From positions 159,216,001-159,280,000 of the forward strand of contig OZ024742.1 in NCBI GenBank assembly GCA_964016885.1: a stretch of 64,000 nt of DNA, read 5' to 3'. Shown here one piece after another: positions 12,109 through 60,488 of the stretch (positions are counted from its first letter, which is position 1; each line of letters starts with the position of its first letter). The notes under the pieces are model-generated. The model was not told the origin of the DNA, ran no database searches, and was given only the letters and a program-made list of their open reading frames with translations. The position numbers were made by a program, and so were the translations under genes. The DNA is from Eledone cirrhosa (lineage: Eukaryota).

Positions 12109-15100
12109 TAGGTTTATTTACAATAGTTTATAACTTTGCCTAATAATCCGCATGGTGAGCAAATGGGGTTCCACGTGCTAGCCTCCCCCACAACCCCGGC
12201 AGACAGGATGGAGAAGGCGTTTCCCCGGAGGATGGTAGGGGAGATGCGCTGGAAGAGCCATTCCAACTCGCCTATGGTGGTGAATAGGGAGGTAGCTCTA
12301 GAGCCAAGGACACCAGAAGTTTCCACTGCCAAGGGCACGACCGCGAACCTGTCGGAGAGCGACCGGTACTTGGAGAGTTTGGGTTCCTCAGCCCCACATG
12401 CAGCAGTACCTGGGTTAGTCGCAGACTGCACCAGGTTGCGGCTGGAGAAAGTGTCGCTGCAAGTGGCATCACAGACGTGGGGTTTGCCACCACGAAACGG
12501 GAAGATGGTCATACCGTCTGGCCTTTTGCCATTCCCTCAGTCCAGCCCCACCGGCTCAAGCTGGGAGGGATAGCCTGCAGTGTCCAAGCCAGTCTTAATG
12601 ACCTCGTTGAGGGCAGCATGGCGTGGAAGGCGGCCGGCACTGTGGCGACAGGAAAGCGGATGGAGGCCGAAAGCGTCCACGGTGGATCCACAGCGACATT
12701 TATGTGGCTCGCAGATCCGGAATCCAAGCCTCAAGGAAACGCCGATGCGCAAGCTATCGTTATCCAGCTGCATGCCAGTGGAGAAGGAAGGAAAGGCACG
12801 GAGCCAGGCACTACTGTGGGGTTCGGAGGCCGCGCGAAAACAGGCAAGGTGGTGCTGGTCGAGCTGGCGCATGAGTTTGTCTGAGGCGAGGCTGCATTGG
12901 ATGGCATCCCATACGCTTTGGGGGGACTTGGCGTTAGCAAGGGGAGAAGGAGGAGGGACGTCTACTGGGCTAAGTCCCAGTCTGTCACATGTCTCACAGG
13001 CGACCTCACGTTCCCTGAACACAGAGGGTTCTATTATGTTTTGGAGAACCCTGCCGACCAGGACGCGACATGAAGTTACCGATGAAAGAAACGCCGGCAA
13101 AGCCAGCGAGATCGGGGTCAGGAAGTCAAGGCCCACATATCTGACAGGTCAAGTGGCCTGTTGCCATCCAATGTCGTCAAACCTGACGTTGCATACTTCT
13201 TCAGCTGCCGCTCGGATACAAGTATCGAGGTCAGCGAAGAGAGATGCGTGGCTGTAGCATGGAGCGCTGCGAAGGGTGTAGAGGAGCTTCGGCACGGCGA
13301 AGCAGTTCCTCAACAGGAAGAGAACTGGGTGGCCGTCGATCAAGCCCAGTCGGCTCGTGAGAGTCTGGAGTTGTTGGAACCTAGACCTGATGGTAGAGTG
13401 GATGGCCGGCGGGTGGATCGGTGACCCGAGGATGAGGACATCCTCTTTGGGGGTCACCTGGTGGAGAATGGACCTCACGCCCGAGACGGAAGCTGCAAAG
13501 CTCTCAGCATCATGGCTAACATTCACCACCTCCGACTTGGACGAGTTGACCTGGAGGCCGATTCCCGCCAGGGCAGGAACCACCGATTGGCAGACAGTCT
13601 CGACGGTCCCGCACAGCATAGCATCATTCTGGTACCAAACGTTGAGAGGGGGCCGTGATACTCCGGGAAATGCGTGTATATACCAAGGTCAAACAGGACG
13701 GGGTCCAAAGGGTCGCCCTGTTGGACCCCAGTGGCCAAAGGTATGACCGTATCAGCAGCAAGGAGCATGCTCGAGGCTCCATATGACAAGTAGGCCAGTG
13801 GGTAGGAGGAGGGGGCTCGGCTGAGGTAGGCATCGAGCAGATAGTCCGGGTGTATGCAGTTAAAGACATTCCTCATGTCAAGCTTGACAATGAGGTGTCT
13901 GGAGTCCCTGGATGCCGGTTCTGGTGGGCAGCTATTGAAGAACTGCCTGGTTGCATGTGCGGCCCCGTCACAGCCACCGGACACGCCGAGACTCAGTTGC
14001 ACCGGACTGAACTCCTCACCCAGTTCAGGTGTTATGGACCTGCAGACCACCTTAGCAGCCAGCCTCCGGAAGACATTGCCCACAGCGATGGGGCGTATGC
14101 CGCCTTCTTTCTTCCTGCACTCAGAAGGCGGGGCCCGGCTTCAGTGGAGAGGGAGGATAGCAACTCCTTGAGGTGGCCTGGTCGGAGACCATCAGCACCT
14201 CCTAGCTACTGCTAGCTGGGAAGGACTTGATAGCAGACATGATGTCTGCGTCGGAAGCCACAAGGAGCAGGTGGGGATCGGATAGGGGTATGAGTCGGAG
14301 ATCAGCGGGTGGATGAGGGTGCTTGAGTCGCAGGGCAGCCAGTGGTTGGAGGACAGTGTCCTCTGAGGCAACCACTCTTACTGCGATCGAGAAATCACCC
14401 ATGATAAGTTTATGATAATGGGCGCTTGCCTAAAGGGCGAAACATTGGCCTTGACAAAGGCTGCTGTCGACAGGCCGCCTCGGTCAGCGCCAGAGCTGGC
14501 GAGGCCGAGGGTGAGTGGGGCGAAATAGTAGAGGCGCTTCCAGTCGCTAGCTCGATTGGAGTCCAGAGTACTCTCGATCGAGGAAGCGAGGGCATCGGCT
14601 ACCGGCACCCGGGCCGTCCCTGGGATCCTGAGTGGAATCTTCCGGAGCCGCCTGAGCCGAGCGATGTTGATCAGCGAGGCTTGGGCATGAGGCAAGCTCG
14701 CTGTCTTATCTGGTGGAGTGCTAGATGGCCGTAGCTGGGCAGACGAGGGGAAGAGGCAGTTCCTGCATCTCCACGCTGCGGGGTCACTGGAAGTCCGACG
14801 CGTCAAGCCAACACAGGTGAGGTGGTGGAAGCAGCCGCACCCCGAACAGTTCCGGCCCCTGTTCCGTCTATTCTTGGTGCTGCAAGTGCTACAGATGTCG
14901 ACTGATGGGGATGGAGGATGGGGCGTGGAGCCGAGGACTGAGGCACCAAGCGGTATCAGGGGTGAGTGGCTGGTTGTCACCAGCCTAGGTGCTAGGCACA
15001 ACTGCATGTGGATGGAAGGGAAAGTGTTGGTATGAGTGAGGCCTCATAGCTCACCTACATCAGATATGGAGGCGACAGAAGACAAGATAAAGGAGAAGGG

Positions 15101-17447: not shown

Positions 17448-17645
17448 TTCATCATATATATATATAATTGTTTATACTTTTGGCACAAGGCCAGCAAATA
17501 CCCAGTGCATTACTGGTACTTTATTTTGTCGATCCCGTAAGGATGAAAGGCAAAGTTAACCCCGGCGGGATTTGAACTCAGAATGGCAAGGGCCGTAACT
17601 ATCATAACGTTATCGTTATATATATATATATACATATATATATAT

Positions 17646-17736
<91 letters not shown>

Positions 17737-18222
17737 CTTAACAGCCGTACTAAGAGTGGGAAATGAAATATCGTTTCATTTTTTCCGTTTATCGTTTTCG
17801 GTGCACCCGGCCGATTAACCCACTCGATATGCAAATTGGGCTACTCAGCCGTTAATATGCATAAGGTAAGTATATACGTTCAACAATCTGGCAGGAAGGT
17901 ATACGTTGCTGACGATAGCTAACAAGATTGAAACTAGTACAGCGTTCCTTTGTCAGTGTTGAACAAACGAGCAACGGTGGTTGCTAGACACTACGGCTTA
18001 ATACGGGATGTTTGTTTACAAACACACCGAGCATTATAATAAATATTCGGTGAATCCATACGTGCATATATATATGTGTGCATGTATGTATATATATATA
18101 TACATACTACTGTACGTCGGTACGTCGGTATACATATATGTATGTACGTGTACATACTTATATTTAAGTAACAGCCGTACTAAGAGTGGGAAATGAAATA
18201 TCGTTTCATTTTTTCCGTTTAT
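17737..18222 (+). mobile_element. Hammerhead element family Q: ~1.1-mer of a 430-bp unit in (TA)n
   Basis: taacagccgtactaagagtgggaaatgaaatatcg at 17739 and 18169. Confidence 0.85.
17903..17945 (+). ncRNA. Minimal type I hammerhead (family Q)
   Basis: acgttg CTGACGA tagctaacaagatt GAAA ctag TA cagcgt. Confidence 0.82.
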
Positions 18223-18321
18223 ATATATATATATATATACGTTATTCCGGGTTGAATCAGAGGTAACCACAATAAGTAAGGTACTCAATACATTGCAGAG
18301 TATAAAAGTTTTAATATAGAT

Positions 18322-18434
18322 GAGATTCTACAGGACTAGAACTGTTTCATTCTTTAGAAATCATCAGGATTCCTGATTATCGAGATTCCTGATGGTTTCT
18401 AAAGAATGAAACAGTTCTAGTCCTGTAGAATCTC
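18322..18434. ncRNA. Back-to-back inverted hammerhead pair (18322-18372 on -, 18382-18434 on +)
   Basis: gagattc CTGATG(G/A) tttctaaagaat GAAA cag-ttctagtc-ctg TA gaatctc; the minus copy has canonical CTGATGA. Confidence 0.75.
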
Positions 18435-18435
18435 A

Positions 18436-18496
<61 letters not shown>

Positions 18497-36104: not shown

Positions 36105-37567
36105 GGCATACCTGACTTTTAACGGTCTGAAGAATGAAAGTAAATTTATTTTCATTTTCAACGTCATGAAAATGAAACTACATTTATTGTCATTAATTAT
36201 TTTCATTTTCGATTGTAAATGTTGTTGTTGATACTGTCCGTTCTGTTATGGCTTGATTCAAGCCATAACAGAACGGACTGGGGTCATAAAAAGGGCAGAG
36301 AATGAGAACGGATTGGGGTCAGAAGGGCAGAGAATAGTCTGTTTTTAAAACAAAGCACCAGAGGGCACGATTTTACTACAATCTCATATCAAATATGTCT
36401 GGACGAGTATATGGTCGCAGTACCTTAGCTGATGATATTTTCGATACAAATGATATCCTTAATCATAATGAAACAATATATACACTAATACCTGCGATAC
36501 ACGGTGACACTGTGTTGGCGAGACGGCGTTTGTTGGCAAACAGTGTCAATTGTCCTGTTTGTAATGAGGCGTGCCGATTGCAACGATATTCTGAGGGTGT
36601 CGATAAATGGAGATGGCGATGCAACCGCGACAAATTCAGTCAATCGGTGCGACGGAATTCTTTTTTCGAACGAAGCCATGTGCGACTGGATCACATTATT
36701 GGTATTTTATACATGTAGTGCTATGATCAGGCACACGTACAGATCATTAGAGAAACGGGAGTCTCCGAACGGACAGTTATAGAACGGACAGTTATAGAGA
36801 AATTTGTGAGCAGTATTTGGAGGCAAATCCTCAAGAACTTGGAGGCTTCGATGATAATGGTGAGTCGATCATTGTAGAGATCGACGAATCGAAATACTTC
36901 CATAGAAAGTATCATCGTGGCCAGTGGAAGCAAGGCCACTGGGTCTTCGGCGCTGTTGAACGCCATTCTGAACGCTGCTGCCTTGTAGAAGTCCCAGATC
37001 ATAGCCGTGAGACTCTCGTCCCCATTATTCAGCAGTGGATTTTGCCAGGCAGCCGCATCATCTCGGATGGTTGGGCTTCCTATTCGGAAATTGAAGAAAT
37101 TGAAGGTGGTATTTACCTCCATGATGTTGTGGTGCACCAACGGAACTTTGTCGATCCTGCAGACCCTGATGTGCACACACAACTCATAGAGAACACGTGG
37201 AGCCGTGCGAAGAAGAAGCTTCGTCGCCAGCATGGGACCAGCAATACTTTATTCCCCTCATATCTAGCTGAATTTCTTTGGCGGCAGAGAGTTGGTGCCA
37301 ACAAGTTTGGCGAAATGCTAAACTGTATTGGAGCTATTTACAGGGTGTAGTAAAGATTTTAATAAGGTTGGTCAATTTAAATTTTATATGCAACAAACGT
37401 TTAAATATGTACTTTTTTTCAACACACAGAACGGACAGTATCAACAACAACATTTACAATCGAAAATGAAAATAATTAATGACAATAAATGTAGTTTCAT
37501 TTTCATGACGTTGGAAATGAAAATAAATTTACTTTCATTCTTCAGACCGTTAAAAGTCAGGTATGGC
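36105..37567 (+). mobile_element. Merlin (IS1595/ISXO2-like) DNA transposon with ~142-bp TIRs
   Basis: TIRs 36105-36246 and 37426-37567, left one starting GG; inserted in (TA)n. Confidence 0.92.
36395..37350 (+). pseudogene. Merlin transposase, interrupted by a stop at ~36716 and a 15-bp duplication at ~36767-36796
   Basis: CPVC...WRC zinc ribbon, SVRRNSFFE; catalytic motifs VEIDESKY, IISDGWASY, HTQLIENTW. Confidence 0.9.
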
Positions 37568-42659: not shown

Positions 42660-45600
42660 CAAGCTGACGTACCCAGCTTCGCCCGGGTAAACAGATGATA
42701 AGAGAAGACAGGTAAAAGAGAAAATGACTGTATTGGATGTTTGTCTGGTTACAGTATGAGGCGAGTCCGTGGTGTCTGTGTGATACAGAAAACAGTTTTA
42801 AAAAATCTTCCAGATATACCAGATTCTTCATTGTACCGTTTGTGCATAGTATATGAACAATTCTAGGTGCTCCCACCTAGAATAGTGACCTCTAAGAGAT
42901 GGTTCATCTTCTACCTGACAGTAAAACGTGTATCATTGCATAGACGTGGTTGTTCCACGTTTCTCAAAAGGATGATGGAAGTTCCAATCTTTTATATTAT
43001 ATGTAGATATAGATATAGATAATTAATATAAAATATGTCCGTCAATGTAAAAAAGGTCCCTATTTACTTGAAATGGTTTATACAAATGCCAAATTATTAT
43101 GGATATGGATAACATGCTTATCTATAAGTGGTCAGCTATAATAATAAAACAACAAATTATATGACACAAAAATTTATTCAGTAATTTCCAGGCTCTTAGC
43201 TACAGAGTAATAGACAGTCAATGTTGCACAGAGTTCAGTTCGGGGAGGTGGCCTGGTTTGAACTCCAAATGACGGATCCTTCTACTTCGAAAATAGAATC
43301 GTTTTTCAATATTACTCTAGCCCTGGCCGGCCATAGGCACCAAGCCTTTTGCCAGACTCAGCATATGATGAGGTTTTATTACCACTGCAATCAGAAGTGA
43401 TACATTTGAAGGCAATTTCTACCAATACTTGTTGGTTTTTATTGCTCATTATCGACAATAAATGACATTGAACATAAATGATAACTCTGTCAAAGCTCAC
43501 AATACTGATCAAAGGACACCAATGTCTGAATCATTTATGTCGCTTATTGATAGCATTAAAGATATGCATACATCAGCTCAAAGTTTCATTATAGACAATA
43601 TTCAGGGTTGTTCCTCTGTTAGTGGTATCAATTGCAAATTTTATACCATCAGGATCGCACACTCGAGATGCAGCAACATACAGTTGCCCATGGCTGACTA
43701 CTGGATCATTCAAGTAGACACCGAGTTTAGCTTCTAAAACTCTTCCGATAATCAATCTATCAACAATCAATCTGGCACCATTGCAAAGACCCATTTTATG
43801 ATTGATATTTCTAAGCAATATAATCGGCATACCCTTTTTCAACCTCAAAATATGTGGGGGAAATCCGGGTATTTGAAGTGAATTCAGATACTCAGTCGGA
43901 ACATCCACATTGATCTGCTGATTAGGCTCCATTGCATCCACACTGACGGTCAACCATTCCTCTCCAGGAAACATTCCGGCTACTTGTGAATTTATTTCAT
44001 CGACCGTTGCATTCGTATGAATTAGAATAACGCGTTCTGATATCCAGGAGATATTCTGCCAAAAAGCATTCAAATTAGGGAACACCCAGTCAATCAATGC
44101 TTGGCGGTCCAGTGGCATGACCAAATGGTCTGGGATTCTTACAGTCTGATTATCACTAACGTGTGGCAATTCATCGTTTCCCAGCTGCATCAACCATCGG
44201 CCGTATGTCTCAGCCTTTTCGTTTTGCCCGAATATACGAAGTCGCATATTATCGTGTAATCGCAAAACTCTGAAATGGCGCCACAACGGGGACTTTTTCA
44301 GACATGCATCGACAATTTGCGCTCTTTGAGCATTCCTAACAATTGGTAGCACCTGTCTGAAATCGCCACCAAGAACGATAGTCTTACCACAGAATGGCAG
44401 GTCACTACCGAAGATATCTCTCAAAGTTCTGTCCAATGCCTCCAGCAAATATCTGTGTGCCATTGGAGCCGCGTCCCAAATAATCAGAGACGTATTGCGT
44501 ATAAGGCCCGCGAGTTCACTTTTTCCTGTAATGTTACAGACTCAACTCATCCGGAGGCAATGAAGCCTTGAAGCATGAGTGGAAGGTCCTTCCACCACTC
44601 AGCAAAGTGGCAGTGATCCCACTGGTGGCCACAGGGAGAGCAATCTTCCTCTGAGCTCTGACTGCCGATAACATAGTGTTGAAACAGAATGTCTTTCCGG
44701 TGCCTCCTGGAGCATCTATGAAAGCACACAGTTGCTCGTTAGTGGAAATCGAGTGGAGAACACCATCGACCAATTCTCTCTGAGATTGGGTCAACATTGG
44801 CATACGTTCATCCACAATACGTTACTGTTCCAGTGGATCAAACTGGAATAGTTCCCTCCGATCGAGTGGCAACCGTCTAAGCTGCAATCTCATGTTCAAT
44901 GCTAAGACACGTTGCCGCATTTCTTCATCAGGAATTGGCAAATTGAAATCTCTTAAACATTTCAAATGAACTTCAAGCAGTTGCTCAATATTGAGCAAAA
45001 CAATAGCCTTCATCAAATGTTCATCATCGACCTGAAGATGATGCCTAAAATCATCAGTCCTAATTCCCCAATGGCGTTCAAATAACTCTCTTGTAGAATC
45101 CTAGAATCGTGACAAACAACTGCCTTATTTGAGCTGGCATCTGTGTTCCTGCAGCTTCCATGGCGTTATTCCATTCAGCGTCATCCTGAAGGAGTCCCAG
45201 ATGTTGACACACAGCTTGGTATGTTTCATATTCCACGCCATTGATTGTTTTCAAATCAGCGAAGCTCTGTTTACCTCTCGAAAACTCACTATGCAACAGA
45301 ATTCGGAGATAAAACACATCACCAGATGCTGGATGAACATTACAAACCCATCCAATAGTCATGAATCTCAACTTTTGTTTTCTATCATTCCATTTCTTTC
45401 CCTTCTTATCCCACGTATAGTGCGAAGGGAAATCGCAGTAGAGTTGCCTTTGATTCGGGTTCAAAGCATGTTCCCTATTATGCTTGAACCACTCAGTCAA
45501 TTATTGTGTCTATTGCCACCTCCCTGTTGATGCTGATTCTCATGATCATCTAACTGAACAGACTGAACAGATATGTTCCATCCATTTTCACCTTTTGGGA

Positions 45601-47266
45601 ATAAAAGAACATAATGCAATGGATCGTATGCCCTATTTGACTCATTGATAGTCTTGAGACCACCATCTCTGCGATTGAGGACGATATCTCTCGATCCAGG
45701 CTTATCGTCCATCAACACAGAAACTTCACGAAATCCTTCAGGGGCATTATATCGCCTTTCGTGTTGATTCCTTGGCATTGCGTCAGCCTTTATCGCCAAT
45801 GTTTGCTGCCGAACATTTTGCATTTCAGCCACCAACATGAAATCCATAACATAAGGATTACACTCTCTAAGCCATGATTGAAAATCACGGATCAAATCAC
45901 TTAACCTTTGCCGTTCAAGTTCAGTTATATTTCCTGGCAACTTCATCCAACCGATCCTGATATCCTCCTCCGATTCACTATAATCTGGATCGTTATTGTA
46001 AATTTGAGCGAATCGAGGCCTCTCTTCTGGGGTAACTTCTAAATTACCGATACAATGATACAAACGGCCTTGAATGACTACATTCGGTTGCCATGCTCCA
46101 CTCTCAAACATCTCACTAACTCTCTGCGATGCTAAAGCTAATGGATTGTTAATTTGCCGCGAATATTTGCGCAGTAATCTACCTCGGTCTCCTTGATCAC
46201 CCCACATACTTAGTAGTTTAAACTCCGGTGACTCCTCATCATCCGGCATTCGCAAGGGTTCTAGTTGAACTGCTCCTTTATGACAGCACATTGTGGTCCA
46301 CGTCTTTTCGTGCCTCCAAAGCAATGCTCAACAATGTGGACACTCTGCTCGTCCACCAATCTGAAAATGATACGGTTGCCATGATCTATTTTTAATATCA
46401 TTCGTTCGCCTTCTAGCCTCTTTACTGGAATGAGGAGCACTTTGGCGACACATTCTCTGAACTTCTGTATTGCGCTGGCGCTGTTCAGCCAGCTCCTCTT
46501 CATCCATCGCAGCACGCCGTTGCTGCTGAATTCTGGCCATCTGCTGATGATGCTCAGCCAGTTCGTCTTCAACCATCGCAGCACGCCGTCGCTGCTTGAC
46601 TCCAGTGTTTCGTTGGCGTTGTTCATCCAGCTCCTCTCCATTCATGGTGGCACGCCTACGCCTCTGAAGTTGGGCGTTCCGATGGCGCTGTTCGTCCCGT
46701 TTTTCTCCATTGCTGGCTGCACGCCGTCGCCGCTGTAGTTCGCTGTTTGATAAAGTCGAATTGCTTTTATTATCAGTATTCATTTCGAGCAATTGTCAAA
46801 AATTGACACAATAATAAATATAAAACATGTTCGGCAATGTAAAGAAAGGTCCCTATTTACTCCCTTCACAACTCTGTGTATGTTAGACTGACAGACAGGC
46901 ACACAGACAGATAAACTGCGTGACAATTGTGGAACGCCACATACATACACGCATGGAAACGCGCACACGCACGCAAACTTACACACGCACACATAAAAAA
47001 CATGTTGATAGTTTTTACTTTCTGTGGAACGCTGCACGCACGCACACACACATAAACACACGCACACGTACATACACACGCACACATGTTAATAGTTATT
47101 GAACACAGCGTTCACACTCTCCCCTCTCACTCCCTCATTGGCATTATGCATATTAATTTCAGTTTGGCGTCGTTGAGGTGGGCGGAGTCGTTTGAAACCT
47201 ATGAACCAATGATAATCGAGAATTATGACACACGGAATACTGACGTTCTTCAAATTAATAAATAGA
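42660..47266 (-). mobile_element. Helitron, internally deleted and decayed
   Basis: 5' A|TCTATTT; 3' hairpin cccgggcgaagctggg plus CTTG|T. Pif1 motifs DAPGGTGKT, VATSGITATLLSGGRTFHS, LGGDFRQVLP, LLRNI...LCNG; CPHC..CCHKG, RFAQIY, YDPLHYVLLFPKGENGW. Confidence 0.92.
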
Positions 47267-53419: not shown

Positions 53420-53996
53420 TGTTATACTTTGGGAGGGTCATGTTGCCAATAAGAAACACACGCACCAGTTGCTTTCACTTCAATTTATTATATATTTATA
53501 AATTTATAAATTTACAAATTTATAAATTTCTGGTTGGTTGGTTGGTTCCACAACCAGATAGTTGTTTATATATAGTCATAGTTCTTTCGTCACACACTCT
53601 GTGACCTCTTCAGTGACTGGGAATTCCTTTCTCTGTTTCTGTGCCTCTCCTTTGTTCTGTCCTACGCCATTTTGTTTCTGTGAAACAAAATGGCGTAGGA
53701 CAGAACAAAGGAGAGGCACAGAAACAGAGAAAGGAATTCCCAGTCACTGAAGAGGTCACAGAGTGTGTGACGAAAGAACTATGACTATATATAAACAACT
53801 ATCTGGTTGTGGAACCAACCAACCAACCAGAAATTTATAAATTTGTAAATTTATAAATTTATAAATATATAATAAATTGAAGTGAAAGCAACTGGTGCGT
53901 GTGTTTCTTATTGGCAACATGACCCTCCCAAAGTATAACAATATCGGTTTCAACACACGATTTCAGATAAAGAATCTTGCTAAACAAATTCAGAAA

Positions 53997-54000
<4 letters not shown>
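53414..54000. repeat. Family K pLTR forming a near-spacerless ~265-bp palindrome (centre ~53680); hammerheads at 53574-53618 (-) and 53742-53786 (+)
   Basis: agtca CTGAAGA ggtcaca-gagtg-tgtgac GAAA gaac TA tgact. Confidence 0.82.
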
Positions 54001-59222: not shown

Positions 59223-59792
59223 ATGCAAGTATGTATGTATGTATACGTACATACATATATGTATACAGACGTACAGTAGTATGTATATATATACACACAT
59301 GCACACATATATATATATGCACGTATCGGTTTACCGAACATCTATTATAATGCTCGGTTTGTTTGTAAACAAACAAACAGCCCGAATTACGCCGTACAGT
59401 GTTTAGGCAACGACGTCACCTTTTTGTTCAACACTGACACAAGAACGATGTACTAGTTTCAAGCTTATTAGCTATCGTCAGCATCGTATACCTTCCTGCC
59501 AGATGGTTGAACGTCTGAAAGTATATACTTTCCTTATGCATAGTAACGGCTGAGCAGCCTAATTTGCATATCGAGTGAGTTCAGTCGGCCGGGCACACCG
59601 AAAACGATAAATGGAATAGAATGAAACGAAATTTCATTTCTCACTCTTATACGGCACTTACTTAAATGCAAGTATGTATGTATACGTACATACATATATG
59701 TATACAGACGTACAGTAGTATGTATATATATACATACATGCACACACATATATATATGCACGTATCGGTTTACCGAACATTTATTATAATGC
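59223..59792 (-). mobile_element. Family Q second copy (~1.3-mer, ~444-bp period) with hammerhead at 59445-59487
   Basis: atgcaagtatgtatg at 59223 and 59667; acgatg CTGACGA tagctaataagctt GAAA ctag TA catcgt. Confidence 0.87.
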
Positions 59793-60340
59793 CTCTGTGA
59801 TTTGTCTAAAAGACGCAATGTTTAGACAAATCAAAGAGGCAATAAACATAAATGAACTCCAACCAAAATTAAATAGAAAACATGAATGGAACAGCAACAT
59901 CACAACTTACAATTAAGGACAAAATGAAAACACACACACACGTAGAACAAACAAACAACCAGTAACATATAAATAAACAAATATAAACACACACAGACAC
60001 CCGGATGTAACACATGCGCAAACTAAGCACACATCACACACAAAAACAAGATGGCGTAGGACAGAACAAAGGAGAAGCACAAAAACAAAGAAAAGAATCC
60101 CTAGTCACTTAAGAGGTCACAGAATGTGTGACAATATATGAACAATCATCTGGTTGTGGAACCAACCAACCGGGAATTTATAAATTCCTAAATTTATAAA
60201 TTTAATTTATAATAAATTGAAGTGAAAGCAACTGGTGCGTATGTTTCTTATTGGCAACATGACCCTCCCAAAGTATAACAATATCGGTTTCAACACACGT
60301 TTTCAGATAAAGAATCTTGCTAAACAAATTCAGAAACGAA
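59791..60340 (+). mobile_element. 3' end of a Penelope-like element: GIY-YIG endonuclease C-terminus plus family K pLTR
   Basis: DAMFRQIKEAININELQPKLNRKHEWN* (~59812-59916), resembling Neptune-type RQIxEA..I..LNxKxEW, followed by family K sequence. Confidence 0.65.
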
Positions 60341-60488
60341 ATATATATATATATATATGCAAAAGTTCTATTTAAATTGTTGGGATACAACAAGCCTATA
60401 TTTTTATAACTGATATAAAGCACTCGACAAGTATTTGGAGTAAATATACGATATTAACAAATGGAAACTATATTTATAAAACCATATC

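Follow-up and report, generated by a model that had tools for sequence, protein, structure and literature searches.

The Q family of Eledone cirrhosa is most probably (at a probability of about 0.8) a protein-less tandem retroelement with a hammerhead motif, i.e., a non-LTR retrozyme or a non-autonomous derivative of Penelope-like elements (PLEs), that is inserted by PLE machinery. Because its insertions bear the same two-site, (TA)n footprint as the PLEs of this genome, Q is likely a parasite copied by a PLE enzyme. It is a new example of a described class, non-LTR retrozymes or non-autonomous PLEs, and not a new class.

Two Q copies lie in the window, i.e., the whole 64,000-nt stretch of contig OZ024742.1 that was analyzed (Table 1), and both were found where the first-pass annotation of this DNA had placed them. 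Copy 1 consists of a 430-nt unit followed by a 54-nt terminal repeat that is 100% identical (18169–18222 repeats 17739–17792), and its 5′ edge is blurred within 17732–17739 by the flanking (TA)n. The unit length of 430–444 nt proposed earlier is right for copy 1 at 430 nt and wrong for copy 2, in which the period, by coordinates, is 439 nt and not 444 nt. The two copies are 83.5% identical. They had been regarded as different permutations of the unit; instead, they display two fixed 3′ ends, the long site S2 in copy 1 and the short site S1 in copy 2, together with variable 5′ truncation. Copy 1 reads through S1, and copy 2 reads through S2 at 59607.

Table 1. Coordinates of the Q copies, their motifs and the adjoining family R sequence in the window.
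Feature	Position	Strand	Remark
Q copy 1, 1.13-mer, subfamily A	17739–18222	+	3′ end is long site S2
Q copy 2, 1.30-mer, subfamily B	59792–59223	-	3′ end is short site S1 (59223), then (TA)n
(TA)n run 5′ of copy 1	17617–17736	.	Host target, or expanded
(TA)n run abutting copy 1 at S2	18223–18239	.	
TA/TATG-rich segment, copy 1	18059–18150	+	Long RNA stem with G.U pairs predicted; its inner (TA)n hairpin varies in length
Small conserved hairpin, copy 1	18157–18168	+	4-nt loop holds S1 (junction after 18163)
59-nt "tail" between S1 and S2, copy 1	18164–18222	+	Contains hairpin
Type I hammerhead motif, copy 1	17903–17945	+	Predicted cleavage after 17939
Hammerhead stem I, copy 1	17903–17908/17940–17945	+	
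Hammerhead core, copy 1	17909–17915	+	
Hammerhead stem II, copy 1	17917–17928	+	Private mismatch at 17927
GAAA-CTAG-TA, copy 1	17930–17939	+	
Hammerhead motif, copy 2	59445–59487	-	Stem II intact; predicted cleavage after 59451
Short inverted family R piece	59793–59807	-	Between copy 2 5′ end and R arm; microhomology at both joints
3′ part of autonomous PLE family R	59808–60341	+	Head-to-head with copy 2; long (tailed) site of R before (TA)n

The Q hammerhead motif occurs far more often than expected by chance: the exact 32-nt core had 12,546 matches in the 3.0-Gb genome and a looser version of the motif had 23,705, compared to 0 for each reversed-pattern control. The best 40 relatives of copy 1 are 99–100% identical to it and spread over many contigs, and those of copy 2 are 96–98% identical. 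The sequences fall into at least three subfamilies (A, B, and C). Given that they are nearly identical, some copies are probably recent; overall, the family is real, very abundant and young to moderately old. Its units, mostly 420–460 nt and up to ~540 nt long with a GC content of 38%, are non-coding and arranged in tandem as dimers to multimers, with arrays that reach at least seven units, and a type I hammerhead motif was found in each tandem unit (119 core-to-core units from the sampled loci). The longest ATG frame in a Q dimer encodes 51–71 aa, and the Q units contain no ORF with RT and GIY-YIG endonuclease, the combination by which an autonomous PLE is recognized. Pieces resembling subfamilies A and C also occur in contigs of the public runs X4 and X5 that are labelled as two other organisms, and related species may thus have the family as well.

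As first described, both window copies carry the type I motif CTGACGA…GAAA-ctag-TA, and the double change in stem I (acgTtg/caGcgt in copy 1 vs. acgAtg/caTcgt in copy 2) was borne out. The motif has 6 bp in helix I, 4 bp in helix II with a U.U beneath them, and 1 bp in helix III, which carries a 4-nt palindromic loop. Judged by its sequence, it has the "canonical" metazoan type I layout in the accessible text of Cervera and de la Pena (2014). It had been called a minimal hammerhead, but the minimal form defined in that text is without helix III and loop 3, both of which the Q motif keeps. Hammerheads with a very short palindromic helix III are thought to cleave as dimers (Cervera and de la Pena, 2014), and by analogy the Q hammerhead, being of this type, would be expected to work as a dimer. 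Self-cleavage of Q cannot be assumed, since 8 of 9 Xenopus retrozyme dimers did not cleave according to the available part of a recent preprint (Li et al., 2026, bioRxiv 10.64898/2026.07.22.740005). One stem II pair is disrupted by a C>A change at 17927 that is private to copy 1, C being the letter found there in nearly all other copies. At the variable position of stem I, the first 100 matches listed had U.G (47), G.U (38), A-U (13), and U.U (2) when counted by hand; pairing across the subfamilies is kept in 98 of these 100, although the counts reflect a few subfamily events and not 100. Among the 150 of 223 Rfam matches listed (E ≤ 1), there was no hammerhead match; those listed were to miRNA models only, on hairpins and microsatellites. 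Stems I and II are to be read as predicted pairing, and the motif as a candidate self-cleaving one.

Copy 1 folded with a z of −5.95 (100 shuffles), and circular monomers of subfamilies A and C with z of −6.6 and −7.9, respectively (25 shuffles). Stems I and II were predicted in all four monomers folded, stem I being weaker in B2 and C, and the sense strand folded much better than the antisense strand in three of the four (B2 no better). Double changes across subfamilies were found in 5 of 92 named pairs (10 representatives), including a long-range helix and stem I, a number matched in 3 of 500 shuffles; this covariation is supportive only, because the structure was derived from the same alignment and the sequences come from three related subfamilies.

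The insertions are fixed on their 3′ side. Across 73 merged loci, 112 free 3′ ends were identified, leaving out ends at locus edges and ends continued on the same strand. Forty-nine of them were at S2 (unit position ~54) and 42 at S1 (~417), compared to the 2.9 and 4.8, respectively, expected from uniform placement, and the other 21 comprised 9 in the TA segment and 12 elsewhere. (TA)n adjoined 86 of the 91 hot-spot ends. At loci chosen by the hammerhead pattern alone, 23 of 31 ends were at S1 or S2; the other loci were chosen for containing the whole query, which biases them to long arms and restricts the ends of their main arms. The S2-(TA)n junction had 1,935 exact matches in the genome (control, 0) and was the best-supported loose end in contigs of a public run (39 contigs; library type unrecorded), so it is not an assembly artefact. 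The two sites are 59 nt apart, and each matches (TA)n by 2–5 letters only; in the predicted structure, S1 falls within the 4-nt loop of the small conserved hairpin, and the stretch that holds S2 is mostly unpaired. Subfamily C retains both sites despite altered neighbouring letters. Several ends join non-TA DNA (L011, L063, and L090), which rules out a telomerase-like addition of TA by the RT as an obligatory step. In a check for target-site duplications, 10 of the 73 clusters shared a flank word, all simple repeats; duplications are unreadable in (TA)n.

These ends bear directly on the model of the first-pass annotation, according to which a freely permuted circular RNA anneals to (TA)n through its internal TA tract. 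Consistent with this model are the position of S1 just past the 3′ foot of the tract, the 9 of 112 ends inside it, and the arms that cross the hammerhead with no 5′-end pile-up (3 of 70), which fits a circle. The commonest end, S2, is located 59 nt outside the TA segment, however, and the 3′ junctions, which had been suggested to cluster at that segment, are distributed as 9 inside, 42 just past its 3′ foot and 49 at S2. With 91 of 112 ends at S1 or S2, the 3′ termini are fixed, an outcome that the annotation itself had set against its model. The tract is also predicted to be mostly paired: its mean unpaired probability is 0.13–0.22, and in copy 1 it folds at −43.0 kcal/mol in sense vs. −26.8 kcal/mol in antisense. 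Its outer arms are conserved across subfamilies and its inner loop is variable. Given that the tract is predicted to be paired and that the junctions have only 2–5 nt in common with the target, a long target-annealing sequence carried by the RNA is unlikely, and we regard the permuted-circle model as highly improbable. The TA/TATG tract is instead predicted to form a long RNA stem, not an annealing guide.

The related proposal that the unit seeds new TA-like landing sites has fared better. Among 309 closed TA segments (overlapping loci largely, not fully, removed), 42 had at least 10 TA units, with a maximum of 40, and two loci (L082 and L216) have a foreign element within the TA loop, beyond which the Q sequence continues. 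The inner loop, in other words, expands and takes later insertions, and on these grounds the tract seeds targets in DNA. Another 53 anchor matches without closure within 130 nt were mostly truncations, mutated anchors or false anchors. The TA runs flanking the inserts at L216 and L082 have 36 and 52 and 24 and 29 units, respectively, the usual number being 4–8; either expanded loops are preferred as targets or insertion lengthens the runs.

In contrast to the 3′ ends, the 5′ ends are scattered over the whole unit (70 S2-anchored loci, 43 with an inverted arm). The predicted hammerhead cut was reached or passed by 36 of the 70 S2-anchored arms, and 20 of the 70 were longer than one unit, with unit running seamlessly into unit. 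No significant pile-up of 5′ ends was found at the predicted cleavage site in these loci: 3 of the 70 arms ended near the cut, where 1.5 would be expected (P = 0.19). At L010, one inverted arm (1 of 112 ends) ends exactly at the predicted cleavage position.

If the Q unit were the pLTR of a still existing autonomous PLE, the copies would be 5′-truncated insertions and partial tandems of that element. Such an origin would account for the end signature, which is the same as that of autonomous PLEs, and has a precedent in the Xenopus retrozymes, which the available text of Li et al. (2026) reports to be homologous to pLTRs. We consider it very unlikely, given the seamless arms of more than one unit, the arrays and the short dimer frames described above. 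Furthermore, in a tblastn search five PLE proteins matched only 4 of 176 Q loci (528 kb), and in none of 107 5′ flanks did the end of a PLE ORF run straight into a Q unit among the library matches.

The arms of head-to-head insertions follow a one-short-one-long rule. Both sets taken together, 55 pairs were S1+S2, 1 was S1+S1 and 0 were S2+S2, i.e., the tail is found on one side only. The 37 pairs from the merged loci were divided into 25 S1+S2, 1 S1+S1, 0 S2+S2, and 11 with at least one end elsewhere; for the 26 pairs with both ends at a hot spot, P was about 4e-7. Of the 41 partner arms in the independent S2-anchored set (68 loci, after 2 duplicates were dropped from 70), 30 ended at S1, none at S2, 10 at other positions and 1 at the locus edge. 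Opposite arms diverge by 4.4%, redundant units by 2.6% and different loci by 11.1%, and rare alleles are shared 7–12 times more often within one insertion; low divergence and shared rare alleles within insertions indicate that both arms come from the same or a near-identical RNA. The within-arm identity test yielded one haplotype per insertion, which fits circular and uncleaved multimeric templates alike; the within-arm distance was at or below that to the nearest other locus in 29 of 74 cases only.

The inverted arms could also have been produced by fold-back self-priming of a single cDNA (Arkhipova, 2013), with S1 and S2 as points of resolution by the endonuclease and not RT starts. This alternative applies to the insertion step alone and leaves room for dependence on PLEs. 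Self-priming and endonuclease resolution have been proposed in print, in the portions available to us (Arkhipova, 2013, PMC3846280; Craig, 2021, PMC8557442); in 32 of the 55 S1+S2 pairs, one arm could be nested in the other, and the short inverted R piece next to copy 2 looks like a fold-back. The arms of the remaining 23 of the 55 pairs are not nested either way, which a single fold-back would fail to explain, and in the anole PLE studied in vitro the tail maps to two RT start sites, as described in the accessible text (Frangieh, 2024, PMC11167929). We therefore consider fold-back priming unlikely.

A DNA-level satellite, in which local tandem duplication and unequal crossing-over multiplied a unit with a vestigial hammerhead, would explain one group of loci. 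At 20.40–20.43 Mb of C12 (L014 and L025–L029), Q forms a satellite-like higher-order array in which a shared internal deletion of ~200 nt recurs every ~5.5 units, which points to local amplification after insertion at some loci. For the family as a whole, such an origin is extremely improbable: copies that are 99–100% identical are dispersed over many contigs with unrelated flanks, the flanking host DNA is not co-duplicated, and fixed 3′ ends occur together with variable 5′ ends and inverted arms. In addition, the catalytic core differs between subfamilies at position 7 only, which is a free position of the hammerhead. The first suggestion, that Q is a mobile tandem monomer with a hammerhead and inserts into (TA)n, is upheld, and local duplication fails for the dispersed copies with unrelated flanks.

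The same signature is found in the autonomous PLEs of this genome, in which a GIY-YIG search yielded 10,595 first-look candidates. The autonomous RT+GIY-YIG families P1, P2, and R each have two 3′ ends about 50–62 nt apart before (TA)n. Short+long inverted pairs were found in P1 (L126, L130, L166, and L190) and P2 (L136) and likewise in family R, which has its own two end sites. P1 was identified at L105, L109, L112, L121, L122, L126, L130, and L132, with a 938-aa frame in L121; in its hammerhead-like motif near the 3′ end, core positions 3 and 8 appear, by eye, to be jointly changed. No sequence similarity was found between Q and the 3′ regions or pLTRs of 53 PLE loci, of which 50 were GIY-YIG loci falling into 9 clusters and 3 belonged to R; these 53 are a small part of the 10,595 candidates. 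Ordinary Q insertions lie near 3 of the 50 GIY-YIG loci (L115, L131, and L132).

Family R, with frames of up to 1005 aa (L261), carries a hammerhead motif of its own, and about 60 nt separate its two 3′ ends; an inverted short+long pair of R lies at 53420–54000 of the window. Pfam returned no family for the 1005-aa frame. Given that this frame matches other PLE proteins in BLAST (E down to 1e-19), displays visible RT and GIY-YIG motifs and has Atlas neighbours with HTH_animal, GIY-YIG, and RVT_1 domains, R is a PLE. In extending the family, the protein search reached long R copies, and the DNA search matched an unrelated repeat. Copy 2 of Q is joined head-to-head to R, the Q short end being paired with the R long end, a junction found in 1 of 107 5′ flanks. 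It is possibly a chimeric insertion made by one complex with two different RNAs; it also fits an insertion that deleted most of an R arm.

The window also holds other likely mobile elements. Directly after copy 1, 18240–18437 forms an almost perfect palindrome flanked by (TA)n runs, one arm exceeding the other by about 75 nt; it is a PLE-type inverted insertion from another family. Most of the additional type I hammerhead motifs, which have a helix III insert of 6 nt, are arranged in inverted pairs (21338/21424, 51158/53185, 60545/60841, and 40352); they probably belong to other PLE-dependent families. Long inverted repeats at 36127/37545 surround a 199-aa frame (36751–37350) that by eye resembles a transposase fragment and carries what we take to be ISXO2-like motifs. 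Helicase-like frames at 43573–46795 are suggestive of a Helitron, and LINE-like RT frames are located at 12114–15043.

Q resembles the metazoan non-LTR retrozymes, in the available text of their descriptions (Cervera and de la Pena, 2020, PMC7229834; Li et al., 2026), in the following: short tandem units with one type I hammerhead per unit, a GC content under 45% (38% in Q), no ORF, monomers to multimers, and co-occurrence with PLEs. The axolotl motifs share the U.U at the base of helix II and the 1-bp helix III. The Q unit, at 420–520 nt, is longer than the ~300 nt of non-LTR retrozymes and within the 51–972 nt of Li et al. (2026). CircRNA and cleavage have been described for published retrozymes, whereas Q is known here from its DNA sequence. 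CircRNA templates and PLEs as candidate helpers were proposed by Cervera and de la Pena (2020), and Li, Clavereau and Pollet (2026) backed this proposal with co-occurrence and a phylogeny of pLTRs. In the accessible parts of these papers, PLE mobilization is inferred from shared motifs, co-occurrence and pLTR homology without analysis of insertion ends. Q is instead linked to PLEs by the footprint of its insertions, and comparison with the 53 PLE loci revealed no pLTR homology.

Published insertions of EN+ PLEs, in the portions available, resemble those of Q in 5′ truncation, partial tandems, a head-to-head inverted arm and a tail at one end (Arkhipova, 2013; Craig, 2021), as well as in two internal start sites, microsatellite or AT-rich targets and a hammerhead upstream of the starts. 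The anole PLE uses two internal RT start sites, extends both strands and is a predicted dimer, and its main in vitro substrate was unprocessed RNA (Frangieh, 2024). It primed without homology to its target (Frangieh, 2024), unlike Q, of which both sites have AT letters in common with the target. Q also differs from EN+ PLEs in that it has no coding capacity, its short-long rule has been counted (55:1:0) and its arms are often not nested; its 59-nt tail exceeds the published 30–40 nt (Craig, 2021) and matches that of this genome's PLEs. The non-autonomous Chlamys elements (e.g., MRC1) are without canonical hammerheads and generally have 3′ sequence in common with their helper in the part of Craig (2021) available, whereas Q has a hammerhead and no detected helper homology. 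MRC1 is unmentioned in PMC9977147. Searches of an open-access library listed no paper on the Q family or on the insertion ends of animal retrozymes; repeat databases may already hold Q.

From the footprint we infer the following course of insertion. A structured RNA of 420–520 nt per unit, either circular or an uncleaved multimer, would bind a PLE RT/GIY-YIG protein that is probably a dimer, and the endonuclease would cut both strands of a (TA)n target. Priming would start from one DNA end at S1, in the loop of its hairpin, and from the other end at S2, which lies 59 nt further downstream, with 2–5 nt of AT microhomology at each site. Both cDNAs would be extended over a variable distance, often through the hammerhead and beyond one unit, and their ends would be joined by microhomology, giving head-to-head arms with a one-sided tail, or a single arm if the other is lost. 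In DNA, the loop of the TA/TATG tract expands and takes later insertions.

A bolder joint reading, which we consider doubtful, would unite a circular hammerhead RNA, a PLE dimer, two hard-wired start sites, R as the helper and the spread of TA. Two rolling-circle reverse transcriptions would then proceed simultaneously, one per cut target strand, with each dimer subunit hard-wired to one of the two start sites 59 nt apart. The junction at 59793–59807 would record a complex with the parasite RNA at the short site and a helper RNA at the long site, and would name family R as the helper despite no common sequence. The parasite would also, as it spreads, create new (TA)n sites into which it and its helpers can insert.

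The case for a PLE as the enzyme that mobilizes animal retrozymes has so far been based on co-occurrence and pLTR homology. The Q family, with its tens of thousands of copies, bears the very footprint of PLE insertion, and so provides unusually direct genomic support for such mobilization. The one-short-one-long rule and the non-nested arms bear on how PLEs make their inverted ends and tails. The counted two-site, two-arm footprint makes PLE mobilization and the dimer-priming model directly testable, for which a 420-nt RNA with two mapped start sites offers a small in vitro substrate. The Q family also suggests how (TA)n-rich genomes gather nested insertions.
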